Assembly: GCA_963666835.2 (NCBI GenBank)
Contig: CAXXGO010000006.1
Location: forward strand, 2,368,001-2,432,000
From: Phycisphaerae bacterium
GTDB lineage: Bacteria; Planctomycetota; Phycisphaerae; UBA1845
Length of the DNA stretch: 64,000 bases
Reading direction: 5' to 3'
The notes beneath the pieces are model-generated. The model searched no databases. It saw only the letters and a list, made by a program, of their open reading frames with translations, and was not told where the DNA came from. This document shows, piece by piece, positions 43,664 through 64,000 of this stretch; within the stretch, counting starts at the first letter, position 1; the number at the start of each line of letters is the position of its first letter. The translations under genes and the position numbers were made by a program.

Positions 43664-43674
43664 CGGCTTACGCG

Positions 43675-43986
43675 TCATACCTCCTCGACGAAGATCACGC
43701 GGACCAGGTCTGTGAGGGTGCGGCCCATGTGTTTGTCTTTCGGGCCGGAGGGAATGAAGACGCCGTCGCCGGGACCGTAGTTGACCACCTCGTTTTCGTA
43801 GCGGATCTCGAATCGTCCTTCCAAGACCATGCCGATGTGGCCCTTCTCGCACCAGTGGGGCTCCATCTCACCGGTGTACTCGACCATCCGTAACTGCTTC
43901 CCGTCGTGTCGGTGGGCCTTGAAACGCAGGCCCGGCATCGGCGATTGCCACTCGATCGAATCGAAATCTACCAGGTATTGACTCAT
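43675..43986 (-). CDS. Cupin domain protein
   Basis: PHWCEKGHIGMVLEG...GDGVFIPSG...H; ATGA overlap with the upstream gene. Confidence 0.85.
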   Translation of the reverse strand: MSQYLVDFDSIEWQSPMPGLRFKAHRHDGKQLRMVEYTGEMEPHWCEKGHIGMVLEGRFEIRYENEVVNYGPGDGVFIPSGPKDKHMGRTLTDLVRVIFVEEV

Positions 43987-45563
43987 CGTTGTTCTTCCTT
44001 TTCTTGGGGAGGTTTTGCATTTTTGAGAACCAGGGCGCCGGTCGGACACGCCTCGACGCACTGCCGGGCGGTCTTAGCCAACGCCTCGGCCATCGACTTG
44101 TTGAGCGGCACGCCGACCCGGACGTCGAATCCGCGGCCGATGAATGTGAGCCCGATGTCCTCGCCGGCTTCCGCCGCGATCCGCACGCACAATCCGCAGA
44201 GGATGCACTTGCCCGGTTCGTAGATGACGTCGCCGTGTTGAGCGTGCCGTTGCAGCTTCTGCCGGTATCCGGAGAACCGCTTCCCCTTCACGCCATAGGC
44301 CTCGGCGTAACGCCGCAGCCGGCAGTCGTTCGGTTTGCCGCAGTCACAGTGCAGGCACCGGGCCGCCTCGGTGCGGGCTTGTTCTTCCGTAAGATCTTGG
44401 CCTTCAGCCGCCCGGCCGCTACGGTTGGATCCGGCGGCAAGTTGCTCGATTTCCTCTTCCGCCAGACGCCCGGCCCGCACGTTGTATATTGCCCGAGAGC
44501 CCGTCACGGGATCGCCCCGCAGGTATTGGCAGATGCTCGCTACGGCGGCTTTTGCGTCGGCCAGGGTACGGATCACCAGCTTGCTGCTGTGTCGAATTTC
44601 CCCGGCCGCGAAGACTCCGGGCTGGTCGGTCTCGTGATTCTCAGCGTTTACCGTGACGCCGACGCCAACCGGCGCGCCTGCGCTTCCATCCTCATCTGGT
44701 TTCGGCGCGCCGGTGGCAATCAGAACGGCGTCGTATTCAGCTCGCAGATCTGCAAGTTGCTTCTTCCCGTTGACCTCCGTATTCAAATGGAAGACCGCAC
44801 CCATTCGCTCGATTACGGCGATCTCGGCGTCCACCACCGACTGAGGCAGTTCGTCGGCGTCGAACCGAGTTCGGAGCGTGCCGCCCGGTTCATTCCGGCG
44901 ATCAAACAAGGTACAGTCATGCCCTTCCTGGAGCAAGTGATAAGCGGCCGTCAGACCCGCCGGACCTGCTCCGACGATTGCTATCTTCTTACCGCTACTC
45001 GGCTTACACGGCGGCAGGTAGGGCGACGCCGACGCCAGATCCAGGTCGGCCACGAGTCTCTTGATCAGGCAGATCGCCGGGGCCGAGTCGAGATGGCTGC
45101 GGTGGCAAGCGCGCTCGCACGGCTCCGGGCAGATTCGCCCAAGCACCGCTGGTAGGGCGATGTCCCGCTTGACGGTGACGATAGCCTCATCGAACCGGCC
45201 GGCGGCCACCTGGCGGAGCATTAACGGGATGTCCAGATGGGCCGGGCAGGTGCTCTGGCAGGGGGCTACGCAGTCGCCGACGTGATTGCTCAGCAGCAGC
45301 TCCAAACCGATCTTGCGGATCCGGCGGATCTCGGCGGTCTCGCTCTCGATTCTCATGCCCTCTTCGGCTTTGGTTGCGCAGGACGGCACGAGTCGATCCG
45401 ATCCTTCCGCACGAACCACGCAGAGCATGCAGGCCGTGGCCGGGGGGTGTCCGGGGCGATAGCAGAGCGCGGGTATGTCCACGCCGAGCTGCCGCGCCGC
45501 GTCCAACACAGTGCCACCTTCGGGCACTTCTACCTCTCGACCGTCAATGTGCAGGCGGGGCAT
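43983..45563 (-). CDS. Fe-S flavoprotein, BfuA/NfnA-like (NuoG/HydA N-terminal scaffold with GltD-like FAD insert)
   Basis: 2Fe-2S PALC..ACMLC..PSC; HVGDC..PCQSTCP; ICPEPCERAC; GAGPAGL; GVFAAGE; RCLHCDC....C; KCILCGLC...CVEACPTGAL. Confidence 0.85.
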   Translation of the reverse strand: MPRLHIDGREVEVPEGGTVLDAARQLGVDIPALCYRPGHPPATACMLCVVRAEGSDRLVPSCATKAEEGMRIESETAEIRRIRKIGLELLLSNHVGDCVAPCQSTCPAHLDIPLMLRQVAAGRFDEAIVTVKRDIALPAVLGRICPEPCERACHRSHLDSAPAICLIKRLVADLDLASASPYLPPCKPSSGKKIAIVGAGPAGLTAAYHLLQEGHDCTLFDRRNEPGGTLRTRFDADELPQSVVDAEIAVIERMGAVFHLNTEVNGKKQLADLRAEYDAVLIATGAPKPDEDGSAGAPVGVGVTVNAENHETDQPGVFAAGEIRHSSKLVIRTLADAKAAVASICQYLRGDPVTGSRAIYNVRAGRLAEEEIEQLAAGSNRSGRAAEGQDLTEEQARTEAARCLHCDCGKPNDCRLRRYAEAYGVKGKRFSGYRQKLQRHAQHGDVIYEPGKCILCGLCVRIAAEAGEDIGLTFIGRGFDVRVGVPLNKSMAEALAKTARQCVEACPTGALVLKNAKPPQEKEEQR

Positions 45564-45634
45564 TCAGGTTGAACTCCGGTTTCGCTTGCTATTGGCCGTT
45601 CGGGTCATTGTCCGCCGTCTCCAATCCTCTGGAA

Positions 45635-48439
45635 TCAGACCACCTCAATGGCGTCTTCCGGACACTTCGTTCTGCAGATGTCACACCGCGTGCATTTCTC
45701 GGCGTCGATTTCGTGTTTCCGGTATGGGGTGAAACCGATGGCATCGTCCGGACAGTGCTGCGCGCACAACGTACAACCGGTGCAAGCGTCCGTTACGCGG
45801 TACGTGATCAGAGCCTTGCACTTGCCGGCGGGGCAGCGGCCGTCGAGATGTGCTTCGTACTCCTCGCGGAAGTACCGCAGGGTGGAGAGCACCGGGTTCG
45901 GCGCGGTCTTGCCCAATCCGCAGAGGCTTGCTTTCTTGATGGCGTGGGCGAGTTCTTCGAGCGTGTCCAGGTCGCTCGGATGCCCACGGCCCTCGCAGAT
46001 GCGGTTCAGGATGTCCAACATACGGCGCGTGCCGATTCGGCAGTACGTACACTTGCCGCACGAGTGGTCTTGGGTGAAGGCCAGGAAGTACCGGGCGATG
46101 TCAACCATGCAGTCGGTATCGTCGAGCACCACGAGCCCGCCGGACCCCATGATCGCCCCGACCTCGGCCAGGGCTTCGTAATCCACTGGCGTATCGGCCA
46201 GGAATGCCGGCACGCATCCGCCCGAGGGCCCGCCGATCTGGACGGCCTTGAACTGGCGATCGTCCTTGATGCCTCCGCCAATCTCCTCGACGATCCGGCG
46301 GACGGTAACGCCCATGGGCACTTCGATCAGCCCGCCGCGTTTGACCTTGCCGGCTAGGGCGAAAACTTTCGTGCCTTTGCTCTTGTCCGTGCCGAGTGCA
46401 GCGAAGGAGTCGGCTCCGTGGCGGATAATCCACGGCAGGGTGGTGTAAGTTTCGACGTTGTTGACCAGGGTGGGTTTGTTGCGCAGGCCCTGATCGGCCG
46501 GGAAGGGTGGCCGCAGCCTCGGCGAACCGCGCTTGCCTTCGATGGACGCGAGTAGAGCGGTTTCCTCTCCGCACACGAACGCCCCGGCGCCCTCCATAAT
46601 ATTGAGCCGCAGACTCAACCCGGTTCCGAGGATGTTGTCGCCGAGATACCCGCGCTGTTCACACTCGTGAATCGCCCCGCGGATTCGTTCCACGGCCAGC
46701 GGGTACTCGGCCCGGATGTAAAGGTAGCCCTCGCGGGCTCCAACGGCGAAGGCTGCTATGGCGATCCCCTCGATAACTCGAAACGGGAATGATTCCATCA
46801 ACATCCGGTCCATGAACGCCCCGGGGTCGCCCTCGTCGCCGTTGCAGATGATGTACTTCAGTTCGCCCTTCGCTTCGCGCACCCGCGACCATTTCAACCC
46901 GGTGGGGAATCCGGCGCCGCCGCGTCCGCGCAGCCCGCTTCGGGATACTTCGGCGATGACGTCTTCCGGTGACATGTCATTGACGCAATGCGCGAGAGCT
47001 TTGAACCCGTCGTTTCTCAAATACTCGTCAAGATCCGTCGGGTCGATCTGCCCGCAATGTTCCGTGGCGATGTGTTTCTGAGGACCGAGAAACGCCGCAA
47101 CCGGGGGGTCGCGAAGTTCGATAGCTCTTTCAGTGATCGGTGTCGCTTGCCCGTCCCGGCGGACCTTCTGAGCTACGGTCGTCAACGCGGCCGTGATCCG
47201 TCGGCGGGTACCGGTTGGGCGAAAATGTCGGAGGACGATTGCCGCGGCGTTTTCCGGACCGACTCCCGCATACAACGCGGCCGGCTTCCCCGGGATCACC
47301 GTCTCGACTAAGGGCGTCTGATGACACATTCCCACGCAACCGACGCGTTTGATGTGGACCCTCGATCCCGTGGCCGCAACCGCTTGTTCGAGTGCTTGAT
47401 GAACCTTGCCGCTGCCGCCGGCCACGCAACACGAGCCCAGCCCGATCCGGATCTCTCCGAGCAGGGGGGCGGTCTCGCGGTCCTCCGAAGGAAGAGGCGG
47501 ACGGGGACGACAAACATCGCCGTCGGCGGCAGCGCGGGCGGCGTCCAAAGCGTCCGGCACGGCATCGGGGGACAGGTGGCCGAACGTGGCGTCGTCGATC
47601 TGGGCGACCGGAGCCAGCGTGCAGCACCCCATGCACGCCACCTGCTCAACGGTAAACTCCCCGGTCGGATCCGTGTCAGTATCGGCAGCAATGCCCAACT
47701 CGCGACGCAGCTCGTCCGTGATGGCCTGGGCCCCGGCGACATGACAAGCAGTTCCATGGCACACCTTGACGATGTGCCGGCCCACCGGCGAATGCCGAAA
47801 CTGGGTGTAGAACGACGCGACCCCGGCGATCCGCGCCGGAGTGATCTCGGTGAGGGCGCAAATACGGGCGATGGCGTCCGGGTGCAAGTAACGGTAATGA
47901 TCCTGCACGGCCTGCAGGATGGGGATCGTCGCCTCGGGCGATCGCCCGAACCGGCTGATGACCTCGTCGACAAACCCCAAGTCGATTGCCTGGGCCTTGC
48001 AGGCATCGCACGGTTTGTGTGCCTCGGCCGGGCCGGTGGTTCGCCTCCGGCGCGTGGAGGCACGTTTCTCCCAGATGGCTCGGTGGGCGGCGATGGCCTT
48101 TGCGGTTGGAACCCGTCGGCCACCCAACCGGACCGACCACTTGGCGCCAATCAGCAAAAGCACGGCCGATATGACCAGGACGCGGGTCTCCTTGGCGACA
48201 CGCTTGTCTCGTTCGAGGGAGGCTTCCGTCTGGCGGTCCCACTCGGCCACTAACGCGGCGGATTGGGAGTCGTCTTCTCGGGCAAGTTCGGTTAGCTCGT
48301 CGATCCGCTGTTTCTCCGCTGCGATTCGGCCGACGGCGGCGGAATAGCCGACGATCATCACGCCGATGGTCGCGAAGGTGGCGATTGCTGCCGCCCCGGC
48401 CAGCAGGCGAGCGATAAGCCGTTGGGTGTCGCGACTCAT
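45635..48439 (-). CDS. Membrane-anchored NuoE-NuoF (HydC-HydB / BfuC-BfuB) fusion
   Basis: Two N-terminal TM helices; VCHGTAC...CMGCC; GSCC...GCVGMC; GRGGAGFPTG, NGDEGDPGAFMDR, VCGEETAL, GGPSG, SCGKCTYC...LCGLG, H..GRCPAGKC; C-terminal 2x[4Fe-4S]. Confidence 0.92.
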   Translation of the reverse strand: MSRDTQRLIARLLAGAAAIATFATIGVMIVGYSAAVGRIAAEKQRIDELTELAREDDSQSAALVAEWDRQTEASLERDKRVAKETRVLVISAVLLLIGAKWSVRLGGRRVPTAKAIAAHRAIWEKRASTRRRRTTGPAEAHKPCDACKAQAIDLGFVDEVISRFGRSPEATIPILQAVQDHYRYLHPDAIARICALTEITPARIAGVASFYTQFRHSPVGRHIVKVCHGTACHVAGAQAITDELRRELGIAADTDTDPTGEFTVEQVACMGCCTLAPVAQIDDATFGHLSPDAVPDALDAARAAADGDVCRPRPPLPSEDRETAPLLGEIRIGLGSCCVAGGSGKVHQALEQAVAATGSRVHIKRVGCVGMCHQTPLVETVIPGKPAALYAGVGPENAAAIVLRHFRPTGTRRRITAALTTVAQKVRRDGQATPITERAIELRDPPVAAFLGPQKHIATEHCGQIDPTDLDEYLRNDGFKALAHCVNDMSPEDVIAEVSRSGLRGRGGAGFPTGLKWSRVREAKGELKYIICNGDEGDPGAFMDRMLMESFPFRVIEGIAIAAFAVGAREGYLYIRAEYPLAVERIRGAIHECEQRGYLGDNILGTGLSLRLNIMEGAGAFVCGEETALLASIEGKRGSPRLRPPFPADQGLRNKPTLVNNVETYTTLPWIIRHGADSFAALGTDKSKGTKVFALAGKVKRGGLIEVPMGVTVRRIVEEIGGGIKDDRQFKAVQIGGPSGGCVPAFLADTPVDYEALAEVGAIMGSGGLVVLDDTDCMVDIARYFLAFTQDHSCGKCTYCRIGTRRMLDILNRICEGRGHPSDLDTLEELAHAIKKASLCGLGKTAPNPVLSTLRYFREEYEAHLDGRCPAGKCKALITYRVTDACTGCTLCAQHCPDDAIGFTPYRKHEIDAEKCTRCDICRTKCPEDAIEVV

Positions 48440-49404
48440 ACGCCACCTCGGTCCGGCTGGGGCACCGTGGAGGGCAGGTTGATCGGCTCACGGGGGCACG
48501 AGGCAAAGCAGCGGGCACAGTAAAGGCACGATGACGGCACCGCCCGCATTTGCTCGATGGCGCCAAGAGGGCACGATTCAACGCAGAGGCCGCAGTCCAA
48601 CTCCTTGTCCGGGGTGATGGTTACGCCCTTCCACGAAAAACGTGCGAGAATCGCCAGGATCGCTCCGTATGGACAAAGATACCGACAGTACGGCCGGCCC
48701 ACGAACAGACCGAGCGCGAGCAGCCCCCCTCCGACGAGCATCATGTTGCCCGGGCCCGCAAACCGGAAGAAACCTACAAACGGGTCGAACCGGCAGATGA
48801 TGAACTCGCGATCGACCGCCGGGGCGACGGCATACCACACGGCCAGGATCAGGTAAGCATACTTCAACGTCCCGAGAGCCTTGTCCAACCGGCGTGGAAC
48901 CTGCACCGGTTTGAGCAGCACCAAATCCTGGATCGCTCCGAGCGGACACACTCCGCCGCAGAACACGCGCCCGATCAGCAAAGCCGCAATGAGCGGCAGA
49001 AAGAAGAACACCAGCACGACGAACGGGACCGTGTAACTTGCGTCCGTAAGGGCCACCGTGACGTTTTGGATAGCGCCAATCGGGCACACGCAACCCTCTC
49101 GATAGAACCCGAAGTACAGCAGGCAGCCGACGGTCAGGACTACGAGCCAGTTGCGGCTGCGGCGGCCGAGCACTATCCAGGCCGAGAGCCCCATCGCCAG
49201 GGCCAAGAGCAGAGCGTCCACGGCGCTCCACCAAGCCGCCTTAGGCTGCGGATGCTGCACCGGGGGCGTTACATATCCGTTGCCGATGTCGGCATCCGGC
49301 GGAACGACGTCCACCTCTCGCGTATACTCGGCGCCGAACGAGCCGATCGGAGTTATGAAGGAGATTGCGAGAATGAGCAAGACCGCCAGAGATACCTGTT
49401 TCAC
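48436..49404 (-). CDS. Membrane 4Fe-4S-binding protein (NapH/NosR C-term/CcoG-like)
   Basis: About 5-6 TM helices; GCVCP, FCGGVCPLG, YCRYLCPYG; DCGLCVESCP / CLYCARCFASCP. Confidence 0.88.
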   Translation of the reverse strand: MKQVSLAVLLILAISFITPIGSFGAEYTREVDVVPPDADIGNGYVTPPVQHPQPKAAWWSAVDALLLALAMGLSAWIVLGRRSRNWLVVLTVGCLLYFGFYREGCVCPIGAIQNVTVALTDASYTVPFVVLVFFFLPLIAALLIGRVFCGGVCPLGAIQDLVLLKPVQVPRRLDKALGTLKYAYLILAVWYAVAPAVDREFIICRFDPFVGFFRFAGPGNMMLVGGGLLALGLFVGRPYCRYLCPYGAILAILARFSWKGVTITPDKELDCGLCVESCPLGAIEQMRAVPSSCLYCARCFASCPREPINLPSTVPQPDRGGV

Positions 49405-50066
49405 TCGGTGCCCCCTGTTACGTCGATGTGCGGATCATCCGTGCCGTGCGGCGCTTCGTTTGCGCGGGTGACGGTTAGAGCCATCTTCTCCTTTGATGTC
49501 ATAGCAATGGCATCTTCCGGACAGGCCATGGCGATGGCACAGCGGTTGCAATCGACACAAAGGTCATACCGCACTTCCAGACGAAGCGATCCCAACCCGG
49601 CGGGCTCCTTACACGCCATGACGCACTTGCCGCATCCGTTGCACAGCTTCTCGTCGATCGTGTAGTCGTAGAAGTTGTTCAGCGGGTCGTCCGGGTCGAC
49701 GTCTCCGATCGGGTTGCGGCGGATGGCGTCTCGCGGGCAGAGTCGGCGAGTGGGTAGACCGTCGCGGCCTATCTCGCTGGTTACATCGAAATACCCCGGG
49801 CAAATGCAGCAGCGCCCGCACTTGGCGAACTCGTTGACGGCGCGCACGGCTGACAGCGGCAGAACGCAGGTCGTAGCGCATTTGTCGCAGAAGGGGACTC
49901 CCGTCGCTCCAAGCCGGATATTGATGCACTTGGCCGGGTCGATCAGCCAGACGCCCTCGGCCCCGGCGCGGTTGGCCAGGTAGATGAGCGGTCCGCCGAC
50001 CGCGAGTGCACCCACCCCGCGCGCGGCATACTTGAGAACGTCCCTGCGGGTCGGCTCTTCGTTCAT
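49401..50066 (-). CDS. Tat-signal polyferredoxin
   Basis: TRRDVLK twin-Arg leader; CDKCATTC, CGRCCICP, LCPRDAI, CNGCGKCVMAC, CVDCNRC...ACP. Confidence 0.85.
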   Translation of the reverse strand: MNEEPTRRDVLKYAARGVGALAVGGPLIYLANRAGAEGVWLIDPAKCINIRLGATGVPFCDKCATTCVLPLSAVRAVNEFAKCGRCCICPGYFDVTSEIGRDGLPTRRLCPRDAIRRNPIGDVDPDDPLNNFYDYTIDEKLCNGCGKCVMACKEPAGLGSLRLEVRYDLCVDCNRCAIAMACPEDAIAMTSKEKMALTVTRANEAPHGTDDPHIDVTGGTE

Positions 50067-50947
50067 GGCTGAGAGACCTCCTCATTAGTTTGGGTTGAGC
50101 CTTTCGGCTCGACTCCTTCGCTCTCGCTGAGCGGGGCGAACACGTGAATGCGAAGCTGCACCGTGTCAACCACGTATATGCGGTTCTGAGAATCGATGGC
50201 CACGTCCATGTTCTTGCACACGGGGTCGAACTCTTGGGAGGCTACCACTGCGCGGAACTCCCCCGCCCCGGTATAGAGCTTCACGCGCGGGTTAGCTTTC
50301 TCGGTTACGACCACGTCTCCGTTCGCGGCGAGCGTTATATTCGATGGATTGCAGCACCCGGGGAAGTCCCCCGGGCGGCGAGTACCGAAACGCCCGAAGA
50401 AACCGAGAAGTTCGCCTTCCATAGAGTATCGTTCGATTCGGTGTTTAGCCGGGTTGGCGGCGTGGATGGTTCCCTTGTCGTCGACGCTGAAATCCAACCG
50501 GCCGTTGGGGATCATGAAGCCCTTGGTCCGGTTGTCCTTGCCGATGTTGTTTTGCCACTGTCCGGTCTTGTCGAAGCGGCGAATGCAACGGTCGCCGGAG
50601 TCGGCGACCAGGACGAAGTCGCCGTAGAACCCGATCGCAGTGACTAACCGGAGTCGCTCCTCGTCTTGCCAGAGATCAATGCGGTTGCCGGCGGCGTCGA
50701 ACATCTCCAGTTGGCCCGGTTCGCCGACGAAGACGGTGCCGTCGGCGCGGACCGCGACGCATTGGGCCGGCCTATCCGTGGACCAGCTTCGCTGCAGTTC
50801 GCCAAGGTTGTTGAACACCTTGATGGAGCTGTCACCTGCGGCATACACGAGCCCGGGGCTGTCGACCGCGATGCCCCGCAGCGCCTGTGCGAACTGCTCC
50901 GGACCGGAGCCCTTGCCGCTGATGGTCAACACCTGGCGATATTCCAT
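50063..50947 (-). CDS. NHL-repeat beta-propeller with GCCNP motif
   Basis: GSGPEQF..LRGIAVD, VLVADSGDRCIRRFD, DVAIDSQNRIYVVD; FPGCCNP. Confidence 0.85.
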   Translation of the reverse strand: MEYRQVLTISGKGSGPEQFAQALRGIAVDSPGLVYAAGDSSIKVFNNLGELQRSWSTDRPAQCVAVRADGTVFVGEPGQLEMFDAAGNRIDLWQDEERLRLVTAIGFYGDFVLVADSGDRCIRRFDKTGQWQNNIGKDNRTKGFMIPNGRLDFSVDDKGTIHAANPAKHRIERYSMEGELLGFFGRFGTRRPGDFPGCCNPSNITLAANGDVVVTEKANPRVKLYTGAGEFRAVVASQEFDPVCKNMDVAIDSQNRIYVVDTVQLRIHVFAPLSESEGVEPKGSTQTNEEVSQP

Positions 50948-50965
50948 CGCATCTCTCCGAACCCG

Positions 50966-52231: not shown

Positions 52232-52264
52232 CAGGTTTCTCCCGTTCGCCACGTCGTTGCCGGC

Positions 52265-53575: not shown

Positions 53576-53619
53576 TCTCACTTGGTCACTCCCGTTAGTT
53601 AGGACTATCTGCCTGTGGC

Positions 53620-54387: not shown

Positions 54388-54501
54388 TTGCGGTTTCCTT
54401 CCTTCTGCGAATATTGGATTGCAGCCTGCTACCCTTGTTATTTCGGTCCGCCGCGGCGGGCGGATTCGCATACGCTCCACGGCGCCGGACGATATCACCA
54501 T

Positions 54502-55797: not shown

Positions 55798-55852
55798 ACC
55801 GTCCCCCAACTGGCCATACCGTCTCGCGCCGCAAGCCGCGCCGACGGGCTCG

Positions 55853-57190
55853 CTAGCCGAGATCGAGGGCCATTATATGCTTGCGGTCACGTATGTAGAG
55901 GGTCTTTCCTGTCAAGGTTGGTACAGTGAACGAGTGTCGTTCGGCCACTTTGCAGTTTGAGTGGACGGTGACGCCCTCGGGCGTGACGCTCGCCAGGGTG
56001 AGCTGTCCGTTCTCATCCAGGACGATTATCTTCCCGTCGGCGAACACGCATGACGCGTTCGGGAAGCCGCGTTGGACCCACTTCCGCTCTCCGGTCCGGA
56101 AGTCGAAGCCAAGTAAAACTTTGTCGGTTGCGCCGACCAGTTGGTTTCCAACGACGACCGGCGTCGGCTGGGACACTCGGATCTTGCGGTTATTCCAGAG
56201 TTCCGTCACGGAGGTCTTCCCGTCCTCCGTAGCAAGCCTAAGCGCGCGCCCCTGTGCCTGAGTCCCGGCTTCCGAGAAGAACAGCAGGTCCTTACCATTC
56301 CACACCGGGGTGACGCTCGTGTACTGCTGGCCGGTGCGATGATGCCAGAGCAGATCGCCGTTTATGGGGTCGACGCTGATTACGCCTTCATTGACGCACA
56401 AGACGAGCTGATCGCGCCCATCGAATTCTATCAGGATGGCAGAGGAGTACGTCGTTCCGAACTCCAGGGCTTTCCAGATCAACTTTCCTGAGTGTTGATC
56501 GAAGGCAATGAGCGTGTTCCCGGTGGCAGCCTCATGGTTCTCAGTCTGGCTCTCGGGAGGTGTCTGACGGCCGCCCGGCACTATGACCATGTTGCGGTAG
56601 GCGATGGGACTGCCGCACTGCCCGACATACCGGTCCTGCTGAGCTTCGTATTCGCGAATGAGGTCGTGCTTCCAGACGATCTTGCCGGTTTTCTTCTCGA
56701 AGCAGTGCAGGGCCGAGTTGGAGCCCAGCGTATACAGATAATCCCCGACAAGCAGCGGCGTGGCGTTCGGTCCTTGTCCGCCGTGTCTTTGATCCGGGGG
56801 TTCGAGCGTCGGCGCCGCGATCTTGTGTTCCCAGACAGTCCGGCCGGTCTTGGCGTCCATCGCAACCGTTATCTCGTACCGGCTCGTGATCTCCTTACGG
56901 TACATCGTGAAGATCAGATCATCGTCCGCCACAATAGCCGAGTAGCCGACGCCGAGTTCACGGTGCCAGAGCCTCGTTGGTCCCGACTCAGGCCAGGCGT
57001 TCGCCAGGCCCGACGTGTTCACCGTAAAGTCGCGGGTCGGACCGCCCCATTGAGGCCATTCTGCATGCGCTATGTTGCAGACCTCAACGGCGATAGCCGC
57101 AACGATCAGCCGCCGGCTCCAAATGGAGCGGTTGCGAATCGTGCCGATTGCCGAAGCAGCGGATGCCCCGCCGTTTTCGTCACGATGCAT
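55853..57190 (-). CDS. PQQ-like beta-propeller repeat protein (tandem paralog 4)
   Basis: AHA-EWPQWGGPTRDF...LYIRDRKHIMALDLG. Confidence 0.9.
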   Translation of the reverse strand: MHRDENGGASAASAIGTIRNRSIWSRRLIVAAIAVEVCNIAHAEWPQWGGPTRDFTVNTSGLANAWPESGPTRLWHRELGVGYSAIVADDDLIFTMYRKEITSRYEITVAMDAKTGRTVWEHKIAAPTLEPPDQRHGGQGPNATPLLVGDYLYTLGSNSALHCFEKKTGKIVWKHDLIREYEAQQDRYVGQCGSPIAYRNMVIVPGGRQTPPESQTENHEAATGNTLIAFDQHSGKLIWKALEFGTTYSSAILIEFDGRDQLVLCVNEGVISVDPINGDLLWHHRTGQQYTSVTPVWNGKDLLFFSEAGTQAQGRALRLATEDGKTSVTELWNNRKIRVSQPTPVVVGNQLVGATDKVLLGFDFRTGERKWVQRGFPNASCVFADGKIIVLDENGQLTLASVTPEGVTVHSNCKVAERHSFTVPTLTGKTLYIRDRKHIMALDLG

Positions 57191-58481
57191 TACTGCTACC
57201 TCCCAGGTTCAGGGCCATGATGTGTTCCTCATCACGTACATATAACGTGGAACCTACAAGGGTCGGGGCGGTGAAGGACCACTCTTTGGTCAGTTGACAA
57301 TGCGTGTTGACGATCGGCCCTTCCCGAGTAACGGTTACCAGGCCGAGATTCCCGGCGTGATCCAACACGATGAGTTTCTCGCCGCCGATCGCGACTCCTG
57401 ACGGGACAAGTCGCTTGACCCACAAACGCTCGCCGGTGTTAACGTCCAAGGCTGCGAAGAGCGACTCCCTACCGTCGCCCCGTTTGGCACCGACCAGCAT
57501 GTCGCCGACGAGTATGGGGGTAGCCATGCCCAGCGGCGCTTTTTTGTTGGACCACAGGGGTTCGGCTACGGTCTTACCGTCACGGTCAACCAGGCGGACG
57601 GCGCAGCCGGATTCACGCGACGAGAAGAAGATCGTATCAGCCCCGTTCCAGACTGGAGTGGCGAATGCGCCTGCGGTTTCCGCCTCGGCGAGCGGATGTT
57701 TCCAGATAAGCTCGCCGTTGGCCGGGTCGACACCAATGAGACCCTCTTTGGTGAACAGGACGAAGTGATCTTTGCCGCCGAAAGTGATTAGAATCCCGGA
57801 CGAGTGTTGGAGGTGGAATGTCTGGCTTCTCCACACCACCTTACCGGTTGCCTGGTCGAAGGCGGCCAGCGACTTCCCCTCGCTCTTATCGTCCGCGGCC
57901 CGCCCCAACGGGACGATGATCGTGTCGCCGTAGGCAAGAGGGCTGCAGGAATAGCCGCAGGTCTCGATCTGCGCTCCGAAGTCCTTGAGAAGCTCGTGCT
58001 TCCAGAGGATCTCACCGTCGGCTTTTTGGAAGCACTGCAACAAGGCGTTCCTGCCGAGGGTGAACAGCCGGTCCCCGACGACCAATGGTGTGGCGTTGGG
58101 CCCGGAGAACTCCTTGCCGTGGTCCGGAGTCGACTCCGCAATCGTGGCGACGTTCCGCTTTCTCCAGATTGTCTTCCCTGTTTGGGCGTCGAGGGCGACG
58201 ACGAACTCATGTCTGCTCGACTTGTTCTGCCGGTATTGGGTAAAGAGCATATTCCCATCCACAGTGATCGCAGAGTATCCCGTGCCCAGGGGACGATGCC
58301 ACAGCTTCTCCGGCCCGCCTTCGGGCCAGGAGTCGGCGAGTTGGGATGTATCTGCCGTGAAGTTGCGATTCGGCCCACCCCACTGGAGCCATTGGGCGTT
58401 AGTTGGTTGGGCCGATAGAATGGCGGTCAGGGCCGCCGCGATGAGGATGGCTATATCGCGTTTCGTTGAAGGTGCATTCAT
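57180..58481 (-). CDS. PQQ-like beta-propeller repeat protein (tandem paralog 3)
   Basis: GGAG RBS; signal peptide; WLQWGGPNRNF...LYVRDEEHIMALNLG. Confidence 0.9.
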   Translation of the reverse strand: MNAPSTKRDIAILIAAALTAILSAQPTNAQWLQWGGPNRNFTADTSQLADSWPEGGPEKLWHRPLGTGYSAITVDGNMLFTQYRQNKSSRHEFVVALDAQTGKTIWRKRNVATIAESTPDHGKEFSGPNATPLVVGDRLFTLGRNALLQCFQKADGEILWKHELLKDFGAQIETCGYSCSPLAYGDTIIVPLGRAADDKSEGKSLAAFDQATGKVVWRSQTFHLQHSSGILITFGGKDHFVLFTKEGLIGVDPANGELIWKHPLAEAETAGAFATPVWNGADTIFFSSRESGCAVRLVDRDGKTVAEPLWSNKKAPLGMATPILVGDMLVGAKRGDGRESLFAALDVNTGERLWVKRLVPSGVAIGGEKLIVLDHAGNLGLVTVTREGPIVNTHCQLTKEWSFTAPTLVGSTLYVRDEEHIMALNLGGSSNAS

Positions 58482-58536
58482 GTCAGTCTCCATACAGGTC
58501 GGGTTTCGAGAGATCGATTCTCGAGTCGGCCCCGGA

Positions 58537-59850
58537 TTACCCCAGGTCAAAAGCCATGAGGCGTGTGCGGTCACGGACATAGAGCGTGGTGCCCACAAGC
58601 GTCGGAGCCGTGAAGGTCTCTGTTGACCACTCCGGGATCTGCCACGTCGAGTGCAAAGTCAGGCCGTCCGATGTTGCTGTGGCCAGGGCGAGTTGCCCGT
58701 GATCGTCGAGGAGAATGATCTTCTCGTCGCCGGTTACCATCGCTGTCGAACCGAAACCTCGTTTGATCCACTCGCGTTTTCCCGTTTTGATGTTGACGCC
58801 CAGGATGAGCGGAGCCTGCCCGTGTTTGGGAGCGACGAGGAGGTCGCCGATGCGGACCGGGTTGTTGATACCGCTGGTGATCTTGCGATTGGTCCACAAC
58901 TCGTTCGCCACAGTCTTCCCGTCTTTTGTTGTCAGCTTCAGTACTCGCCCACTTTCCGCGGTCGAGCAGAACAGGAGGTCTTCGCCGTTCCAGACGGGTG
59001 TCATACTGTGATTGGCGTTTTCGGCGAGCCGGTGACTCCACAGGACCTCTCCATTGGCCGGATCGACACTCAAGACCTCACCCCGGGGAAGGGTGATAAG
59101 CTGGTCCCTTCCGCCGTGGTTGATCAGGATTGGTGAGGAGTATTGGAATCTGAAGCTCCGGTTCTTCCATATCAGCTTGCCCGTCTGTTGGTCAAACGCT
59201 ACGAGGGACGGGCCATCGTCGTGCGCGGGCGCCGGTGCCAGCCCGCCGACCGGCATGGGGGTTCCGTCGGCGGCGCCTAGGCGGCCAACCATGGCGATCA
59301 CCATGTTCCGATACGCGATGGGGCTGCTGGAATAGCCCCAATTGGGAAGATTCGCGCCGAATTCGGCGACAAGGTCGTGTTCCCAGACAAGCGCACCGTC
59401 GCGCCGGTTCTGGCAGCGTATGACTGCGTTGCGGCCTACCGAGACGAGGAAGTCGCCGGCCACCAGTGGCGTCGTGTTCGGTCCCGGAAATGCCTTGCCG
59501 TCGTCGGGGACCGCCGAGGGAAAACTCTTTTCCCAGAGGGTGTTTCCAGTCTTCGCATCAATGGCGCTGACCCATTCGACCTGATCCGCACGGTGCTTAC
59601 GGTGCATCGTGTAAAGTTCGCCACCGTCATAGGCCACGGACGAGTAGCCGTCCCCAAGTTCCCGTTGCCATAGCCTCGATGGACCATTCTCAGGCCAGGA
59701 AGCAGCCAGCCCCGCGGTTTTCACAGAGAAGTCTCGGTTAGGGCCACCCCATTGAGGCCACCCGGCCTGTGCCGCACTGGATAATGCCGCTACACTCAGC
59801 AACGCGACAACTGAGACGCTTCGGGAAGATGCGGGTCGAGGTAACCTCAT
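58537..59850 (-). CDS. PQQ-like beta-propeller repeat protein (tandem paralog 2)
   Basis: AGGAG RBS; AQA-GWPQWGGPNRDF...LYVRDRTRLMAFDLG. Confidence 0.9.
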   Translation of the reverse strand: MRLPRPASSRSVSVVALLSVAALSSAAQAGWPQWGGPNRDFSVKTAGLAASWPENGPSRLWQRELGDGYSSVAYDGGELYTMHRKHRADQVEWVSAIDAKTGNTLWEKSFPSAVPDDGKAFPGPNTTPLVAGDFLVSVGRNAVIRCQNRRDGALVWEHDLVAEFGANLPNWGYSSSPIAYRNMVIAMVGRLGAADGTPMPVGGLAPAPAHDDGPSLVAFDQQTGKLIWKNRSFRFQYSSPILINHGGRDQLITLPRGEVLSVDPANGEVLWSHRLAENANHSMTPVWNGEDLLFCSTAESGRVLKLTTKDGKTVANELWTNRKITSGINNPVRIGDLLVAPKHGQAPLILGVNIKTGKREWIKRGFGSTAMVTGDEKIILLDDHGQLALATATSDGLTLHSTWQIPEWSTETFTAPTLVGTTLYVRDRTRLMAFDLG

Positions 59851-59973
59851 ATCAGTCTCCTTTGCGATCGTAGTGTTTTAGGTATTCAGCGCGACCATGT
59901 TTCACGTGGATGGCCGCAAGGCGACCTTACACATTATGAACACCAAGGCGATGGGCTACTCGAGATATTTTCT

Positions 59974-61269
59974 TCAACTCAAGTCCAGTGCCATGACGTG
60001 ATGTTGGTCGCGCACATAGAGTGTTGTGCCGACCAGAACCGGCGCGGCCCACGACCGACGCCTGGTGATTTGACAGGCTGAATGCACCGTCAGCTCTTCC
60101 GGGGTTGCGGTTGCGAGACCCAGTTGCCCGTCCTGATCGAGAATGACCAGCTTGCCGTCACCGTATACACAGGTCGCCAGAGCGAAGCCGCGGCGAACCC
60201 ATTCGCGTTTTCCTGTGGATACATCCACTGCTACCATCATTGACGTTCCATCGACGCCACCGCTTGAGCCGAAGAGGTGGTTCCCGATGAGGACCGGATT
60301 ATTTTGAGGAAACTTGATCTTCATACTCGCCCAAACTTCCTCAGTAGTAGTCTTGCCGGCCTTGTTGGTCAACCGAAGCACCCCGGTCTGCCTGCCATCG
60401 GGCAAGACCAGCAAATCTTTGCCGTTCCAAATCGGCGTTGCGTCTTTGCTGTACCTGTCCTGCAGTTCGTGATACCAAAGGAGGGCGCCGTCGTTAGGGT
60501 TGACCGCCATGATTCCCTTATTGAGATACTGCACGAGTTGATCCTCTCCCGCGAAGTTAATGAGAATCGGCGAGGAATGGCACAGCGCCAGATCCTGACT
60601 CTTCCAAACGACCTTCCCGGTCGCCTGGTCCAGGGCAATGAGCGTTGGGGCTCCGGTTGGTGTCCGCCCCGGGGCTCCGTAATCCTCGTTCTGGCGCGGC
60701 CGGTCGACGGGTGCGATTACCAAGTGGTTGTATGCGATGGGGCTTGCCGCGTATCCCCATGTGTAAGACCGCCCGCCCATCTCCTTGACGAAATCGTGTT
60801 TCCAAAGGACCTCGCCGGTCTTCTTGTGGAAGGCGTAGATTACCGAGTCCGTGCCAACTGTGAACACGCGGTCGCCGGCTATCAGCGGCGTGGAATTCGG
60901 GCCCGCGCAAAGCTGGTCACGCTCATCCCTGGGGTCATACGGAGACGAATTGCGATGCTCCCACAGGGTCTTTCCGGTCTTGGTATCCAACGCGACAGTG
61001 AATTCGTTGGTGTTGGCGCGGTACATCGTATACGCGACGCCGTCATCGACCACGAGGGATGAGTGCCCGTCCCCAAGCTCTCGATGCCAGATCTTGCGAG
61101 GGCCGTCGTCCGGCCAGGAGTCTGCGAGGCCCCGGGTGTCGACGGTGAAGTTGCGATCCGGGCCACCCCATTGCGGCCACTGCGCCTCGACGCGGTCGGC
61201 GCTGACATAAATGAGCATGACCGCGGCGAACGCGGTTGTGATTCCGGGCAACGAACTCTTGTGTAACAT
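59974..61269 (-). CDS. PQQ-like beta-propeller repeat protein (tandem paralog 1)
   Basis: AAGGAG RBS; VEA-QWPQWGGPDRNF...LYVRDQHHVMALDLS. Confidence 0.9.
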   Translation of the reverse strand: MLHKSSLPGITTAFAAVMLIYVSADRVEAQWPQWGGPDRNFTVDTRGLADSWPDDGPRKIWHRELGDGHSSLVVDDGVAYTMYRANTNEFTVALDTKTGKTLWEHRNSSPYDPRDERDQLCAGPNSTPLIAGDRVFTVGTDSVIYAFHKKTGEVLWKHDFVKEMGGRSYTWGYAASPIAYNHLVIAPVDRPRQNEDYGAPGRTPTGAPTLIALDQATGKVVWKSQDLALCHSSPILINFAGEDQLVQYLNKGIMAVNPNDGALLWYHELQDRYSKDATPIWNGKDLLVLPDGRQTGVLRLTNKAGKTTTEEVWASMKIKFPQNNPVLIGNHLFGSSGGVDGTSMMVAVDVSTGKREWVRRGFALATCVYGDGKLVILDQDGQLGLATATPEELTVHSACQITRRRSWAAPVLVGTTLYVRDQHHVMALDLS

Positions 61270-61333
61270 GTCGAACGTTCTCCTTGCCTGAACAGCGGAG
61301 TACTGTCCGCGGCGGATCGTGCATAAGGCGATA

Positions 61334-62491
61334 TCAACTTCCACGCGCCGGCGCGGCACCGAAGCAATACAGGACCCCGTCGTCAGTGCCGATCACCATG
61401 CAGTCGGGTCCAATCGCCGGCGAGGCGGTGACCGGCGCGCCGGTCTCGAACCGCCAGGTCTTCTCCCCGGTTTCAAGGTTTATCTCGTAGACATTTCCGT
61501 CGGACGAGCCTACGAAAACGCGGCTTCCCACAACTACCGGAGACGAGTCAATCCGCGCTTTCGCCACGAAGGTCCAGATGGGGCGTCCCGTCAGCGCATC
61601 CAGCGCCCGCAGGCGCTTGTCGCGCCCGCCGACTATGATCTTCTTGGCCGTGACCGCGGCCGAGGCCATGAAAGGGAACTCGCGGTCGGGGTCCTCGTAC
61701 GTCCAGATCGTCTGCCCTTGCTTCCAGTCGACCGCCAGGACTCGTCCACCGTACGTTCCCACGAAGGCTACAGACCCGCGGATCGCGGCGGACGCGCCGG
61801 ACGGAGCTCCCATGGCGACGGTTGCCGTGGCTTTGCCATCGGACAGACGCACAACGTGGAAACGCTCGTCACAACCGACTGCGAAGGCGTGCCCCTCGGC
61901 GATTGCCGGAGAACCGTGGACGTAACCGTCGGTTCCGTACTTCCAAACCAACTCCCCAGTGTCGGCGCGGAGGCAGTAAAGGGAGCCGTCGTACGACCCG
62001 ACGAGGATGCGGCCGGCGTCGTGGTTCGGCGAGGAGATCACCTGCCCCTCAGTCTCAAAGGTCCATTGGACCTTTCCGTCCGAACGTCGGACAGCGTGAA
62101 CGAGCCCCTCGTCGTCGCCGAACACCACGAGCTCCCCAACGACCAGCGGCGACGACTGGATCGGCCCCTTCGCGGCGTACTTCCATTTGAGACTACCGTT
62201 GGTCAGATCGAGGGCGTAGAAGTGCTCGTCGTGACAACCAACGTACACGGTTGTGTCGGCGATGGCCGCCGTCGCCGTGAACGGTTCCGTTGCCTCATAC
62301 TTCCATCGCACCACCAACGTCTCGGGGAGCCTGTAACTGACCACGCCGGTTAGCGCGGGATCGCCGCGAAAGCCGGGCCAAACTGCGTCAACCGATGAGC
62401 GTTCGTCGGCGGACGCCTCCGCGCCGTTCGGACTCTGCGTAGTGGCGACCAACGCAAGCCACCCGATTGTGTTGAGCATAATCCAGCTCAT
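61334..62491 (-). CDS. BamB-like PQQ-repeat beta-propeller protein
   Basis: WPGFRGD; eight very regular blades (SSP...VGS.DG.LY.L...G...W.F/Y). Confidence 0.9.
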   Translation of the reverse strand: MSWIMLNTIGWLALVATTQSPNGAEASADERSSVDAVWPGFRGDPALTGVVSYRLPETLVVRWKYEATEPFTATAAIADTTVYVGCHDEHFYALDLTNGSLKWKYAAKGPIQSSPLVVGELVVFGDDEGLVHAVRRSDGKVQWTFETEGQVISSPNHDAGRILVGSYDGSLYCLRADTGELVWKYGTDGYVHGSPAIAEGHAFAVGCDERFHVVRLSDGKATATVAMGAPSGASAAIRGSVAFVGTYGGRVLAVDWKQGQTIWTYEDPDREFPFMASAAVTAKKIIVGGRDKRLRALDALTGRPIWTFVAKARIDSSPVVVGSRVFVGSSDGNVYEINLETGEKTWRFETGAPVTASPAIGPDCMVIGTDDGVLYCFGAAPARGS

Positions 62492-62804
62492 GATGCCCCT
62501 GCCTCTCGCCTGAATGTAAGACTGTAAAGAAGCCCGGTCCTACCTGCCGACTCGCAAAGTGCCGACAGAAGAGCCCGGCAAACCAAGCAACCCTAAGATG
62601 AGCATTCTGGCGGCCTCTGTGATTTCGGGCCAGCCGGTCGGGTCGGTCATCGAGGCTCAGCCCTCCGTGCCGAGGCTCAGTCTACAGTCTCACCGGTGGA
62701 CAATCCGCACTTTGCCCGCCGATGCCTGCGCGCCGGATTGCCCGTGGGATGTGTTTTCTTGTCGGATGTTGCCCGTCGGAGCGACGTCGACCGTTCGTTC
62801 GTGT

Positions 62805-64000
62805 CTATGGGGCGGTTTTCGAAATAGCCAATAAGGCTCGGCGGTTAGAGATGTACATCACGCCGCTTGACACCACCGGAGTGCTGTACACTGTACTCCC
62901 GACGTCGTTGACGGCTACCTCCACCAGCTCCTTCCCGTGCTTCAGAACGATGATCTCTCCGTCGGTCGTCCCGAGATAGACATTCCCGTCCGCCACAAAG
63001 GGAGAACCCCATACCGCGGCGAAAGCGTCGTGGCGCCAGTATTGTTGCCCGGTCTTTAAGTCCAGGCACTGCAAGTACCCGCTCAGCTCCGCGGCGTAGA
63101 CCAGCCCGTCAGCGATGGCCACGGTCGATAGCGTTCTGCCGAACTTGTCATCGCCCACATGCCAGACGCGCCCCGTTTTGGTAATGTCGCCGCGACCCGT
63201 AGCGTCGATGGCATAGAGATGCCCCGGCCCGTCCCCATGTTCCGGGTCCTGGCCTACCCCCACGAATACCTTGTTGTCGTACACCACCGGAGTGCCGATG
63301 ATCCCGCTCTTCGTACCGCGCCCGTGCGGTACCCACTTGGCATCCGCGGGGTTGAGATTGAACTTCCAGATCGGCTCTCCGGTTTTCGGTTCATAAGCGT
63401 AACACCAACCGTCCCCCCCGGCGAAGATGACCTGGGGCTTGCCCTGAATCATGCCCAGCGCCGGAGAAGACCACTGGCCGTGGAGCACGTTTGCCCCCGC
63501 GTCGTTCCGTTGCCACACGACTTCACCGGTGTTCTTGTTGGCTGCGAGCAGGTCGGGGGCGTTCGGAAACTCCACCTTCTCATGAGTCTTGTCGACGCCG
63601 TTGGAAGTAGTCACGAAGAGTAAGTCACCCCAACCAACCGGCGAGCAGGTTGCCAGATTGTGCGGGCGGACCTTAAGGTCCTTGAACATGTCCAGGATCC
63701 AGACAAAGTCAGCGTCTTGCTTCTGATGGTGCTTTTCGTCGCGGAGCGGGCCGTCGTTCTCCCCGTCGGTGAAACCATTTACGTCGGCGCAGACGAGCTG
63801 ACATTGGTTGCTGACGTAATAGAGCCGGTCGCCTTCCACCCAGGGTGCGGAGACGATTCCCTGCTCGGGCCAGTCGTTAACGCTCCCGGTGGGCAGTTTG
63901 TCGTGCGTGGCCTGCCACAGGAAGGCGCCGGTCTTCTCATCGAGGCAAACCAGCACGCCCTTGTCTCCCTTAATCTCCGGGCGCAGCTCACCTCCATTAT
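62805..64000 (-). CDS. PQQ-like beta-propeller repeat protein, distinct subfamily (5' part outside the window)
   Basis: Frame is open to the window end; NDWPEQGIVSAP, HNLATCSP, LHGQWSSP, GQDPEHGDG, WGSPFVADG. Confidence 0.88.
   Translation of the reverse strand, partial: NGGELRPEIKGDKGVLVCLDEKTGAFLWQATHDKLPTGSVNDWPEQGIVSAPWVEGDRLYYVSNQCQLVCADVNGFTDGENDGPLRDEKHHQKQDADFVWILDMFKDLKVRPHNLATCSPVGWGDLLFVTTSNGVDKTHEKVEFPNAPDLLAANKNTGEVVWQRNDAGANVLHGQWSSPALGMIQGKPQVIFAGGDGWCYAYEPKTGEPIWKFNLNPADAKWVPHGRGTKSGIIGTPVVYDNKVFVGVGQDPEHGDGPGHLYAIDATGRGDITKTGRVWHVGDDKFGRTLSTVAIADGLVYAAELSGYLQCLDLKTGQQYWRHDAFAAVWGSPFVADGNVYLGTTDGEIIVLKHGKELVEVAVNDVGSTVYSTPVVSSGVMYISNRRALLAISKTAP

Follow-up and report, generated by a model that had tools for sequence, protein, structure and literature searches.

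The stretch of DNA analysed here, positions 2,368,001-2,432,000 of contig CAXXGO010000006.1 from the Phycisphaerae bacterium assembly GCA_963666835.2 (genome of 6.02 Mb, 92% complete), is 64,000 nucleotides long and is referred to as the window. Its minus strand carries a constant unit of six genes (43983-52252), which encode, in the order of transcription, the exported β-propeller prop9, a six-bladed NHL propeller, a twin-arginine translocation (Tat) ferredoxin, a NapH-like membrane protein, a fusion of NuoE and NuoF (NuoEF) and a BfuA-like flavoprotein. In our estimate the chances are about even that these six proteins form a single iron-sulfur (Fe-S) wire across the inner membrane that operates independently of quinones, and probably runs from cytoplasmic NADH (reduced nicotinamide adenine dinucleotide) to the NHL/prop9 pair on the outer side. 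The module joins electron-transfer modules of known kinds to a terminal pair of propellers, a combination not described so far. A full-text literature search found no published description of this gene set; the supplements of PMC9304861 and PMC8238504 might list such clusters among NapH-like clusters or BfuB clades without an assigned function. The six core genes, annotated from the list of open reading frames (ORFs) together with Pfam and NCBIfam scans of the window proteins, are as follows.

50966-52252, minus strand: prop9, an exported eight-bladed BamB-like propeller (PQQ_2, E-value 4.8e-23)
50063-50947, minus strand: NHL six-bladed propeller with the Cys198-Cys199 pair (GCCNP), lacking a signal peptide of its own (Pfam)
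49401-50066, minus strand: NapG-like ferredoxin with a Tat signal and four predicted [4Fe-4S] clusters (TAT_signal_seq, 20 bits against a cut-off of 16.7)
48436-49404, minus strand: NapH/NosR-like polytopic membrane Fe-S protein (Fer4_5, PF12801, E-value 1.9e-15, two stretches)
45635-48439, minus strand: NuoEF, a fusion of a membrane anchor, a NuoE/BfuC part and a NuoF/BfuB part, 934 residues (Pfam and hydropathy scan)
43983-45563, minus strand: BfuA/NfnA-like Fe-S flavoprotein, 526 residues (NuoG-type N-terminus and GltD-like part)

These genes are tightly packed at the downstream end of a longer block (43675-64000), in which every gene of the ORF list lies on the minus strand. The stop codon of the NHL gene (50063-65) overlaps the start of the Tat ferredoxin gene (50066), the stop of the latter (49401-03) overlaps the NapH-like start (49404), and the NapH-like stop (48436-38) overlaps the NuoEF start (48439). 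A fourth overlap joins the BfuA-like stop (43983-85) to an internal ATG (43986) of a small cupin gene. Scanning 42800-52400 for promoters and terminators gave 0 promoter-like and 10 terminator-like sites, compared to 1.9 and 7.2 in shuffled sequences. A sequence-only reading of this DNA had reported a co-oriented gene block with these four overlaps, all of which are exact, and had listed nine propellers, a LolA-like protein, the NHL protein, the Tat ferredoxin, the NapH-like protein, the NuoE-NuoF fusion, the BfuA-like protein and a cupin, with which the Pfam and NCBIfam annotation agrees. It had also stated that the block encodes no known catalytic subunit, and indeed the Pfam scan of 43675-64000 revealed no hydrogenase, no molybdenum/tungsten bis-pyranopterin guanine dinucleotide (Mo/W-bisPGD) subunit and no membrane subunit of complex I.

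To define the unit, contigs from one genome per species were scanned with motifs of the NHL alignment, which yielded 171 loci, and the best 80 were examined with 10-kb flanks. By record title, 34 of the 80 belong to Planctomycetota, 42 to Acidobacteriota, two are unclassified, and one each is assigned to Acidimicrobiia and Bathyarchaeia; almost all of the genomes are metagenome-assembled. Genes were counted by tblastn with the window proteins, taking as denominators the loci long enough to show the gene in question. A prop9 ortholog of at least 50% identity lies directly upstream of NHL in 72/74 loci, all except L023 and L027. The Tat ferredoxin gene is found in 78/79, the NapH-like gene in 73/74 and the NuoEF gene in 53/54 loci, each being missing only at L078, and the BfuA-like gene in 46/48, being missing at L078 and L032. 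When 1010 script-called ORFs of the flanks were clustered, no other neighbour recurred within 10 kb; the recurrent clusters were the six core genes, their antisense shadows and further propellers. The two loci of unexpected assignment, L045 (contig binned as Acidimicrobiia) and L089 (Bathyarchaeia), carry a module in the same order that is 50-63% identical to the Acidobacteriota versions, and may be mis-binned contigs or transfers.

The same gene order extends to a more distant family. A metagenome scan with an alignment of distant NHL proteins returned at least 598 stretches with at least 544 relatives, of which 80 were kept. At these loci, whose NHL proteins are mostly 29-40% identical to that of the window, a prop9-like gene lies upstream in 36/37, followed by the genes for the ferredoxin (49/51), the NapH-like protein (36/39), NuoEF (23/25) and the BfuA-like protein (13/15). 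Two additional genes are seen there: a further propeller between the NapH-like and NuoEF genes, and, between NHL and the ferredoxin, a protein of 70-110 residues with a twin-arginine (RR) motif, a hydrophobic stretch and a CxxC...C pattern. The latter is present in all eight loci inspected (L099, L102, L105, L111, L124, L143, L160 and L164) and absent from the window subfamily; at L164 it runs in frame into the conserved VWxxDP start of the ferredoxin.

Around this core the gene content varies. Of the 45 loci in which 9 kb or more is available upstream, 23 have extra propellers there (three or more in 15 of those) and 22 have none, so the whole nine-propeller array was rejected as an obligatory part of the module. 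Orthologs of a 1176-residue FtsX permease encoded beyond the window recur near the module in 9/80 loci, including Bryobacteraceae, whereas the cupin follows the module in 0/44 loci and was rejected as a member. The long propeller array, the LolA-like gene and the ATP-binding cassette (ABC) transporter are thus frequent but optional accompaniments, and the cupin is a local passenger. A gene-neighbourhood search had been proposed to see whether the propellers co-occur with the redox genes in other genomes: this holds across phyla for prop9 and the redox genes, not for the other eight propellers, which vary between lineages, nor for the cupin. Within the class of the window the module is rare, being present in 3/201 sampled genomes, this one included, and in 0/9 genomes of its own family. 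Because of this patchy distribution and the high identity across phyla, the module is probably an accessory, transferable unit.

The cytoplasmic half of the module comprises NuoEF and the BfuA-like protein. NuoEF starts with two hydrophobic segments, followed by the NuoE part, a thioredoxin-like 2Fe-2S domain, the flavin mononucleotide (FMN) and 4Fe-4S domains of NuoF, and a C-terminal 2x[4Fe-4S] domain. Its BfuC part (PF01257, E-value 4.9e-48, residues 158-300) is fused to the B part, in which the BfuB-type Pfam domains occupy residues 346-404, 498-668, 780-864 and 884-932. The best matches among PDB sequences are NfnB (9bov_B, aligned over residues 98-582 of 584), Stn (8oh5_B) and NfnB of a second structure (9n5u_B). 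All close orthologs (68/68), fused or split, have one or more hydrophobic segments ahead of the NuoE domain, and 55 of them have two.

The BfuA-like protein consists of a NuoG-type 2Fe-2S part, GltD-type clusters, a flavin adenine dinucleotide (FAD) fold and a C-terminal 2x4Fe-4S domain, and aligns to residues 5-297 and 425-675 of the 1178-residue NfnA (9bov_A). Compared to NfnA, it ends at the position of residue 675 and lacks the C-terminal molybdopterin-like domain, as do all aligned orthologs from the module. A second segment of ~165 residues, bearing the second Rossmann fold (VGGGNTA) that forms the NAD(P)H domain, is missing from the window protein and nine close relatives (L012, L069, L022, L027, L030, L016, L023, L028 and L052). 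The domain with its GGGNTA motif is retained in seven aligned orthologs from Acidobacteriota, Planctomycetales and others (for example L031, L045, L050 and L088), and in the NfnA of this genome. Since the Rossmann domain of the BfuA-like protein has been lost in the window lineage, the FMN site of NuoF is predicted to be the only pyridine-nucleotide site left there.

By sequence, then, the cytoplasmic half is a membrane-anchored member of the Bfu family, of the Nfn/Stn type, without the two domains that define NfnA. NfnABC and StnABC (9bov, 8oh5 and 9n5u) are the best solved sequence relatives of both cytoplasmic proteins, with which the module shares the BfuB domain set, the 2Fe-2S domain of BfuC and the N-terminal half of the NfnA type. 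They differ from the module in that its C and B subunits are fused and carry a two-segment membrane anchor, in the domains missing from its A subunit (the molybdopterin-like one throughout, the NAD(P)H Rossmann domain in the window lineage), and in that it is encoded together with NapH-like, ferredoxin and propeller genes. According to the part of PMC9304861 on which we draw, the BfuA-type subunit of Bfu enzymes wires the BC core to the module for the third substrate.

Besides complex I, the genome has three other complete Bfu-type sets. NfnABC has an A subunit of 1238 residues that keeps both domains absent from the BfuA-like protein. The Por-linked set has a BfuBC pair and a small BfuA, adjoining genes for a 2-oxoacid:ferredoxin oxidoreductase, and the HydABC set includes an [FeFe] hydrogenase. 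As each of the three is equipped with B and C subunits of its own, the NuoEF/BfuA-like pair is no stray component of another enzyme. The sequence-only reading had named a hydrogenase or a formate dehydrogenase encoded elsewhere as a partner that would overturn its proposal; the hydrogenase part of this is not borne out, the [FeFe] enzyme being supplied with BC subunits of its own.

The membrane and periplasmic carriers are strongly conserved in their cysteines. The Tat ferredoxin has an invariant R7 R8 pair and 16 invariant cysteines in 29 sequences, which are predicted to suffice for four [4Fe-4S] clusters, as in NapG. The NapH-like protein has 14 invariant cysteines in 43 sequences: four in two CX3CP motifs (C149/C153 and C240/C244), seven in the C-terminal ferredoxin-like domain, and three more, C105, C107 and C204. 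Hydropathy and the positive-inside rule predict these last three to lie on the periplasmic side, opposite the CX3CP motifs; for NapH itself the topology given in the literature is assumed. A conserved N-terminal stretch (residues 27-58), likewise predicted to be periplasmic, could serve as a docking site.

In its motifs the periplasmic and membrane half conforms to NapGH, NosGH and MauMN: the ferredoxin has an RR signal and 16 cysteines, the membrane protein has the CX3CP motifs of Fer4_5 and a C-terminal Fe-S domain, and the two genes are adjacent. It fails the family scores, however, as the NapH-like protein lies far below the curated cut-offs of the NapH and NosR families (TIGR02163, 44.9 bits against 213; NF007013, 44 against 234; NosR, NF046105, 52.9 against 1000). 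The three extra invariant cysteines set it further apart, as does the lack of a NapA, NosZ or MauAB partner in the block and of any such recurrent neighbour in the 80 loci. Nor does the genome (92% complete) contain a NapA above the cut-off. NapGH is assumed to take its electrons from quinol, whereas the pair in the module is linked to an NADH-type flavoprotein.

NapH-like conduits have been surveyed together with flavinylated FMN-binding domains, as in NosR and PceC (Meheust et al. 2021, PMC8238504). The part of that survey considered here describes NapH-like proteins as modular trans-membrane conduits to or from periplasmic enzymes, including the propeller quinoprotein ExaA, and in this the module is alike. 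Compared to the systems treated in that part, the module has no FMN_bind domain or ApbE in its block (Pfam scan), its periplasmic carrier is a polyferredoxin, and its cytoplasmic partner is encoded in the operon.

At the periplasmic end of the module stand prop9 and NHL. The AlphaFold2 model of prop9 is an eight-bladed propeller with a predicted local distance difference test (pLDDT) score of 87.6, and a fold search gave BamB chains as the best neighbours, followed by tetrathionate hydrolase and quinoprotein dehydrogenases. Although prop9 shares with these proteins the eight-bladed fold and PQQ_2 matches, it is far below the family scores, reaching 36.3 bits for the BamB family (TIGR03300, cut-off 285.2), 30.5 bits for quinoproteins of the methanol/ethanol type (TIGR03075, cut-off 480) and 18.8 against a cut-off of 26.7 for PF01011. 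Its signal peptide has no lipobox cysteine. An alignment of 27 orthologs has 97 invariant columns, among them the polar runs NHGITRT, WNSExHTP and RRGLFTC (picked by eye), which the paralogs lack. In the genome (92% complete), a search for PqqC of pyrroloquinoline quinone (PQQ) synthesis gave no match, its control also being without a match anywhere, and PqqE gave only radical-SAM matches below the cut-off. The description of the propellers as PQQ-like in the earlier reading was overstated, since their scores are far below the quinoprotein cut-offs and they are BamB-like by score and fold.

The NHL protein gave 558 matches, the best 120 of which are 52-67% identical to it, apart from the window's own sequence. 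In the alignment of these 120, C198 and C199 (GCCNP) and C244 are invariant, and C121 is present in 90% or more. The AlphaFold2 model has six blades and 24 strands (pLDDT 91.3). It closely resembles the NHL domain of TRIM2, with a Foldseek E-value of 6e-18 and a template modelling (TM) score of 0.79, and a Z score of 33.8 and a root-mean-square deviation of 2.1 over 261 aligned residues. The NHL domains of TRIM2/3, Brat and Lin41 are the first fold neighbours, followed by PAL, PknD and lactonases. Protein Atlas gave only generic NHL/SGL clusters. In the model, C198/C199 and C244 would sit in the loops that lead into the innermost strands of blades 5 and 6, with C121 where strand C of blade 3 begins. 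A search of 1.84 billion cluster representatives with a profile built from the NHL alignment retrieved 1454 proteins at an E-value of 1e-30 or below, many of them 320-350 residues long with an N-terminal extension. The 14 distant relatives that were read all keep FxGCCNP, and the Cys-Cys pair provides the sole invariant cysteines of their alignment. Their N-termini, judged by eye, show a lipobox in nine and a membrane anchor in three, with an RR motif in P0249 and perhaps in P0160. Fold searches of prop9 and NHL led to no enzyme assignment.

Several features link the two propellers physically. In 8/76 loci prop9 and NHL are fused in frame without a stop codon, through linkers of ~15-250 residues, and 15/16 of the longer database proteins matched (532-803 residues, independent clusters) carry both PQQ_2 and NHL. 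These Rosetta-stone fusions, together with prop9's signal peptide and the sorting signals on distant NHL relatives, predict a location of NHL outside the cytoplasm. At 50945-50968 of the window (minus strand), 18 nt separate the TAG stop of prop9 from the ATG of NHL, which is in frame with it and closely preceded by a GGAG. The two genes share a frame in 37/76 loci (29/68 when the eight true fusions are left out), many of them close kin, and are out of frame in 39; stop-codon read-through was therefore rejected as a general mechanism for joining them.

Fused forms would be exported by the signal of prop9, and the signal-less NHL of the window might reach the periplasm by hitchhiking, bound to the Tat ferredoxin. 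Structure prediction of an NHL-ferredoxin complex gave a median ipSAE of 0.55 over three runs, compared to 0.01 for the best of three controls, with a contact agreement of at least 71% between runs and a partner pLDDT of at least 77. The mark set for such predictions is reached by 116/157 solved complexes and 2/215 mismatched pairs, while at values of 0.60 or below only 18/157 complexes reach it, along with both of the passing mismatches; these benchmark counts hold only roughly here, as the prediction used its own alignments. The model thus gives weak support to a contact between NHL and the ferredoxin.

From these components we propose the following path. NADH would be oxidised at the FMN of the NuoF part, with reduced ferredoxin as a possible second donor, as it is for Bfu enzymes; where a lineage has kept the Rossmann domain, NADPH would reduce the flavoprotein as well. 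The clusters of the BfuA-like protein would hand electrons to the di-cluster domain on the cytoplasmic side of the NapH-like protein, with the NuoE anchor holding the flavoprotein and the membrane protein together. Electrons would cross the membrane through Cys-ligated centres of the NapH-like protein, which has invariant cysteines on both predicted faces, enter the four-cluster Tat ferredoxin and be relayed to NHL-prop9. The terminal redox site would be the Cys198-Cys199 dithiol/disulfide on the top face of NHL, which might reduce a periplasmic or envelope substrate. Polysulfide or other sulfur compounds, disulfides and soft metals or metalloids are candidate substrates, guessed from the thiol pair, the remote fold likeness to tetrathionate hydrolase and the fermentative host. 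The eight further propellers, the LolA-like protein and the ABC/FtsX transporter would be a variable accessory set, perhaps of alternative partners or substrate handlers.

Outward flow of electrons is the more likely direction, since the Cys-Cys pair is the only universally kept feature of NHL and no cofactor site for the oxidation of a low-potential donor is visible. If so, NHL-prop9 could be a new kind of extracytoplasmic reductase, in which a vicinal Cys-Cys pair on an NHL propeller is charged by a ferredoxin and powered, without quinones, by a membrane-tethered NADH dehydrogenase of the Bfu type through the NapH-like protein; in this specific form we regard the proposal as tentative and rather doubtful. 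DsbD sends cytoplasmic reducing power across the membrane to a dithiol/disulfide centre, and ferredoxin:thioredoxin reductase delivers it from an Fe-S cluster to a disulfide. Both could be functional analogues only, as they have no sequence or fold relation to the module, whose carriers would be Fe-S clusters and whose thiol pair is on NHL.

A number of observations weigh against the proposed wire and its thiol terminus. At the Acidobacteriota chromosome locus L078, prop9 and NHL (matched over residues 1-259) are present, but the 10 kb downstream contain no gene for any of the four redox proteins, and L023 and L027 have no adjacent prop9. The membrane tether is not universal, because the NuoE part lacks a hydrophobic N-terminal segment in 21/27 distant loci. 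C244 and C121 are not kept in the distant NHL relatives, and although all four cysteines would lie on the same face of NHL in the model, this placement comes from strand order only. No redox cofactor is predicted for prop9 or NHL, both of which fold like scaffolds (BamB, and the NHL domains of TRIM and Brat). The use by one NHL family of both the general secretory (Sec) route, in lipoprotein and fused forms, and Tat hitchhiking, in the signal-less form, is unusual, and the complex score is a weak pass. The ORFs of the loci were called by a simple script, and the genomes are related to each other rather than independent samples. Finally, Bfu-type modules are reversible, and a chain made entirely of Fe-S centres also suits inward flow.

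This last point underlies the strongest alternative, which is the direction proposed in the sequence-only reading: the propeller/NHL pair would oxidise a low-potential donor in the periplasm, and the electrons would pass inward by way of the ferredoxin and then the NapH-like protein until they reach the Bfu-type module, which that reading calls bifurcating and which would reduce NAD+ and perhaps ferredoxin. The conserved synteny serves both directions equally, and a fermenter with a bifurcating hydrogenase could profit from the extra reductant. The reversibility of Bfu enzymes is known from HydABC and NfnABC, as far as the portion of PMC9304861 used here goes, and in the corresponding portion of PMC8238504 NapH-like modules adjoin periplasmic oxidases such as ExaA as well as reductases. 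A donor at or below about -320 mV would, however, need a cofactor site, and none is visible in prop9 or NHL, which have neither PQQ-type scores nor metal-binding histidine clusters; the chemistry of a thiol pair, the sole universal feature, also fits reduction better. We judge inward flow to be unlikely.

Somewhat less probable still is that the propellers are non-catalytic docking or assembly factors like BamB, the wire feeding an acceptor encoded elsewhere or a small molecule, and the paralogs acting as interchangeable adaptors. The folds agree with this, in that the best neighbours of prop9 are BamB chains and those of NHL are protein- or RNA-binding domains, and so do the extra propellers of several families that occur nearby in 23/45 loci and in this genome, and the ABC/FtsX transporter that recurs in 9/80 loci. 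Yet identities of 54-73% for prop9 and 50-67% for NHL across two phyla are unusually high for adaptors, the 97 invariant columns of prop9 include polar runs that the paralogs have not kept, and no other conserved neighbour that might be the acceptor was seen within 10 kb.

That two unrelated units, one an Nfn/Stn-like transhydrogenase of the cytoplasm and the other a quinol dehydrogenase of the NapGH kind together with envelope propellers, merely lie side by side is very improbable: each half resembles a known self-sufficient module, and the distant loci have an extra gene between NapH-like and NuoEF and a mostly unanchored NuoE part, but the halves are adjacent and co-oriented in 53/54 and 23/25 loci, with divergence down to ~30-40%, the NapH-like stop overlaps the NuoEF start in the window, the NuoE part has gained a conserved membrane anchor (68/68), the A subunit has lost its NADPH domain, which is required in a transhydrogenase, and a complete NfnABC is already present in the genome.

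To our knowledge, only in a few cases, DsbD and NosR-type proteins among them, is it understood how bacteria bring reducing power from the cytoplasm to the periplasm without the help of quinones. The module links, at the gene level, an NADH flavoprotein of the Bfu type with a NapGH-like conduit, and adds a terminal propeller pair. It is widespread, with 171 species-level genomes from the strict motif scan and at least 544 metagenome loci for the wider family, mostly of uncultured bacteria, and its patchy spread suggests a transferable accessory capability among metagenome-assembled genomes of Planctomycetota and Acidobacteriota. Working it out would assign a function to one Bfu clade left unassigned in Schut et al. 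2022 and would test how electrons pass the membrane in NapH-type proteins, possibly revealing a new thiol-based redox chemistry of the periplasm. If NHL-prop9 is a reductase, the module would be an Fe-S counterpart of DsbD, through which fermenting and soil bacteria could discard or export electrons of low potential, with a periplasmic substrate as the acceptor (for example polysulfide, organic disulfides or a soft metal or metalloid), and the paralogous propellers would be exchangeable substrate modules. The six core proteins offer a defined target for co-expression and cryo-electron microscopy.

The remaining genes of the block are listed below.

62805-64000, minus strand: propeller p1, which opens the minus-strand block and represents a family of its own (PQQ_2/BamB-type); its ORF starts beyond the window, at 64262
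61334-62491, minus strand: propeller p2, accessory, which forms a separate family and is closer to BamB than any other propeller of the set (TIGR03300, 156 bits; cut-off 285)
59974-61359, minus strand: propeller p3, accessory (PQQ_2/BamB-type, signal peptide)
58537-59850, minus strand: propeller p4, accessory (PQQ_2/BamB-type, signal peptide)
57180-58598, minus strand: propeller p5, accessory (PQQ_2/BamB-type, signal peptide)
55853-57190, minus strand: propeller p6, accessory (PQQ_2/BamB-type, signal peptide)
54502-55809, minus strand: propeller p7, accessory (PQQ_2/BamB-type, signal peptide)
53620-54501, minus strand: LolA-like (DUF2092) exported protein, accessory; a weak match (21.5 bits against a cut-off of 21.2, E-value 1.7e-4)
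52265-53623, minus strand: propeller p8, accessory, of the p3-p8/p10 paralog family (PQQ_2/BamB-type, signal peptide)
43675-43986, minus strand, if starting at the ATG that overlaps the BfuA-like stop: small cupin, a lineage-specific passenger (Cupin_2, E-value 2.6e-8)

In all nine propellers of the block, prop9 included, the motif W(P/L/N)Q(W/F)(G/R)GP comes after a signal peptide. Their clustering at this locus is far from chance, since 12 of the 18 loci for BamB-like propellers in the 6.02-Mb genome fall within 24 kb. By identity comparison the nine belong to at least four distinct families. Propellers p3-p8, together with p10 beyond the window, are paralogs that are 40-50% identical to each other and 30% to prop9, whereas prop9, p1 and p2 each represent a separate family with 19-30% identity to the remaining propellers. 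Relatives of p2 (45-53% identity) recur near the module in Acidobacteriota loci, relatives of p8 are found near it in some loci, and LolA-like relatives are present at L011, L023 and L069.

Beyond the window and divergent from the block (contig positions 2432542-2442802) are genes for an ABC ATPase, the double FtsX-type permease of 1176 residues, a DUF6263 protein and three more propellers. Downstream of the block, two minus-strand ORFs at 38864-40591 (575 residues) and 38288-38788 (166 residues) have no match in Pfam or NCBIfam. Elsewhere in the genome, a 671-residue protein encoded next to the HydABC genes (L092:4807-6822) combines an [FeFe]-hydrogenase-like domain with HisKA/HATPase domains and may be a kinase that senses H2 or redox state; a Rex-like regulator is encoded nearby. 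A possible selenocysteine-containing formate dehydrogenase is encoded at L177 (G000:C1:1588101-1589450), where a frame resembling molybdopterin oxidoreductases contains one in-frame TGA. Immediately after the canonical NfnABC operon come two neighbouring DUF1670 genes (L090:15483-17115).

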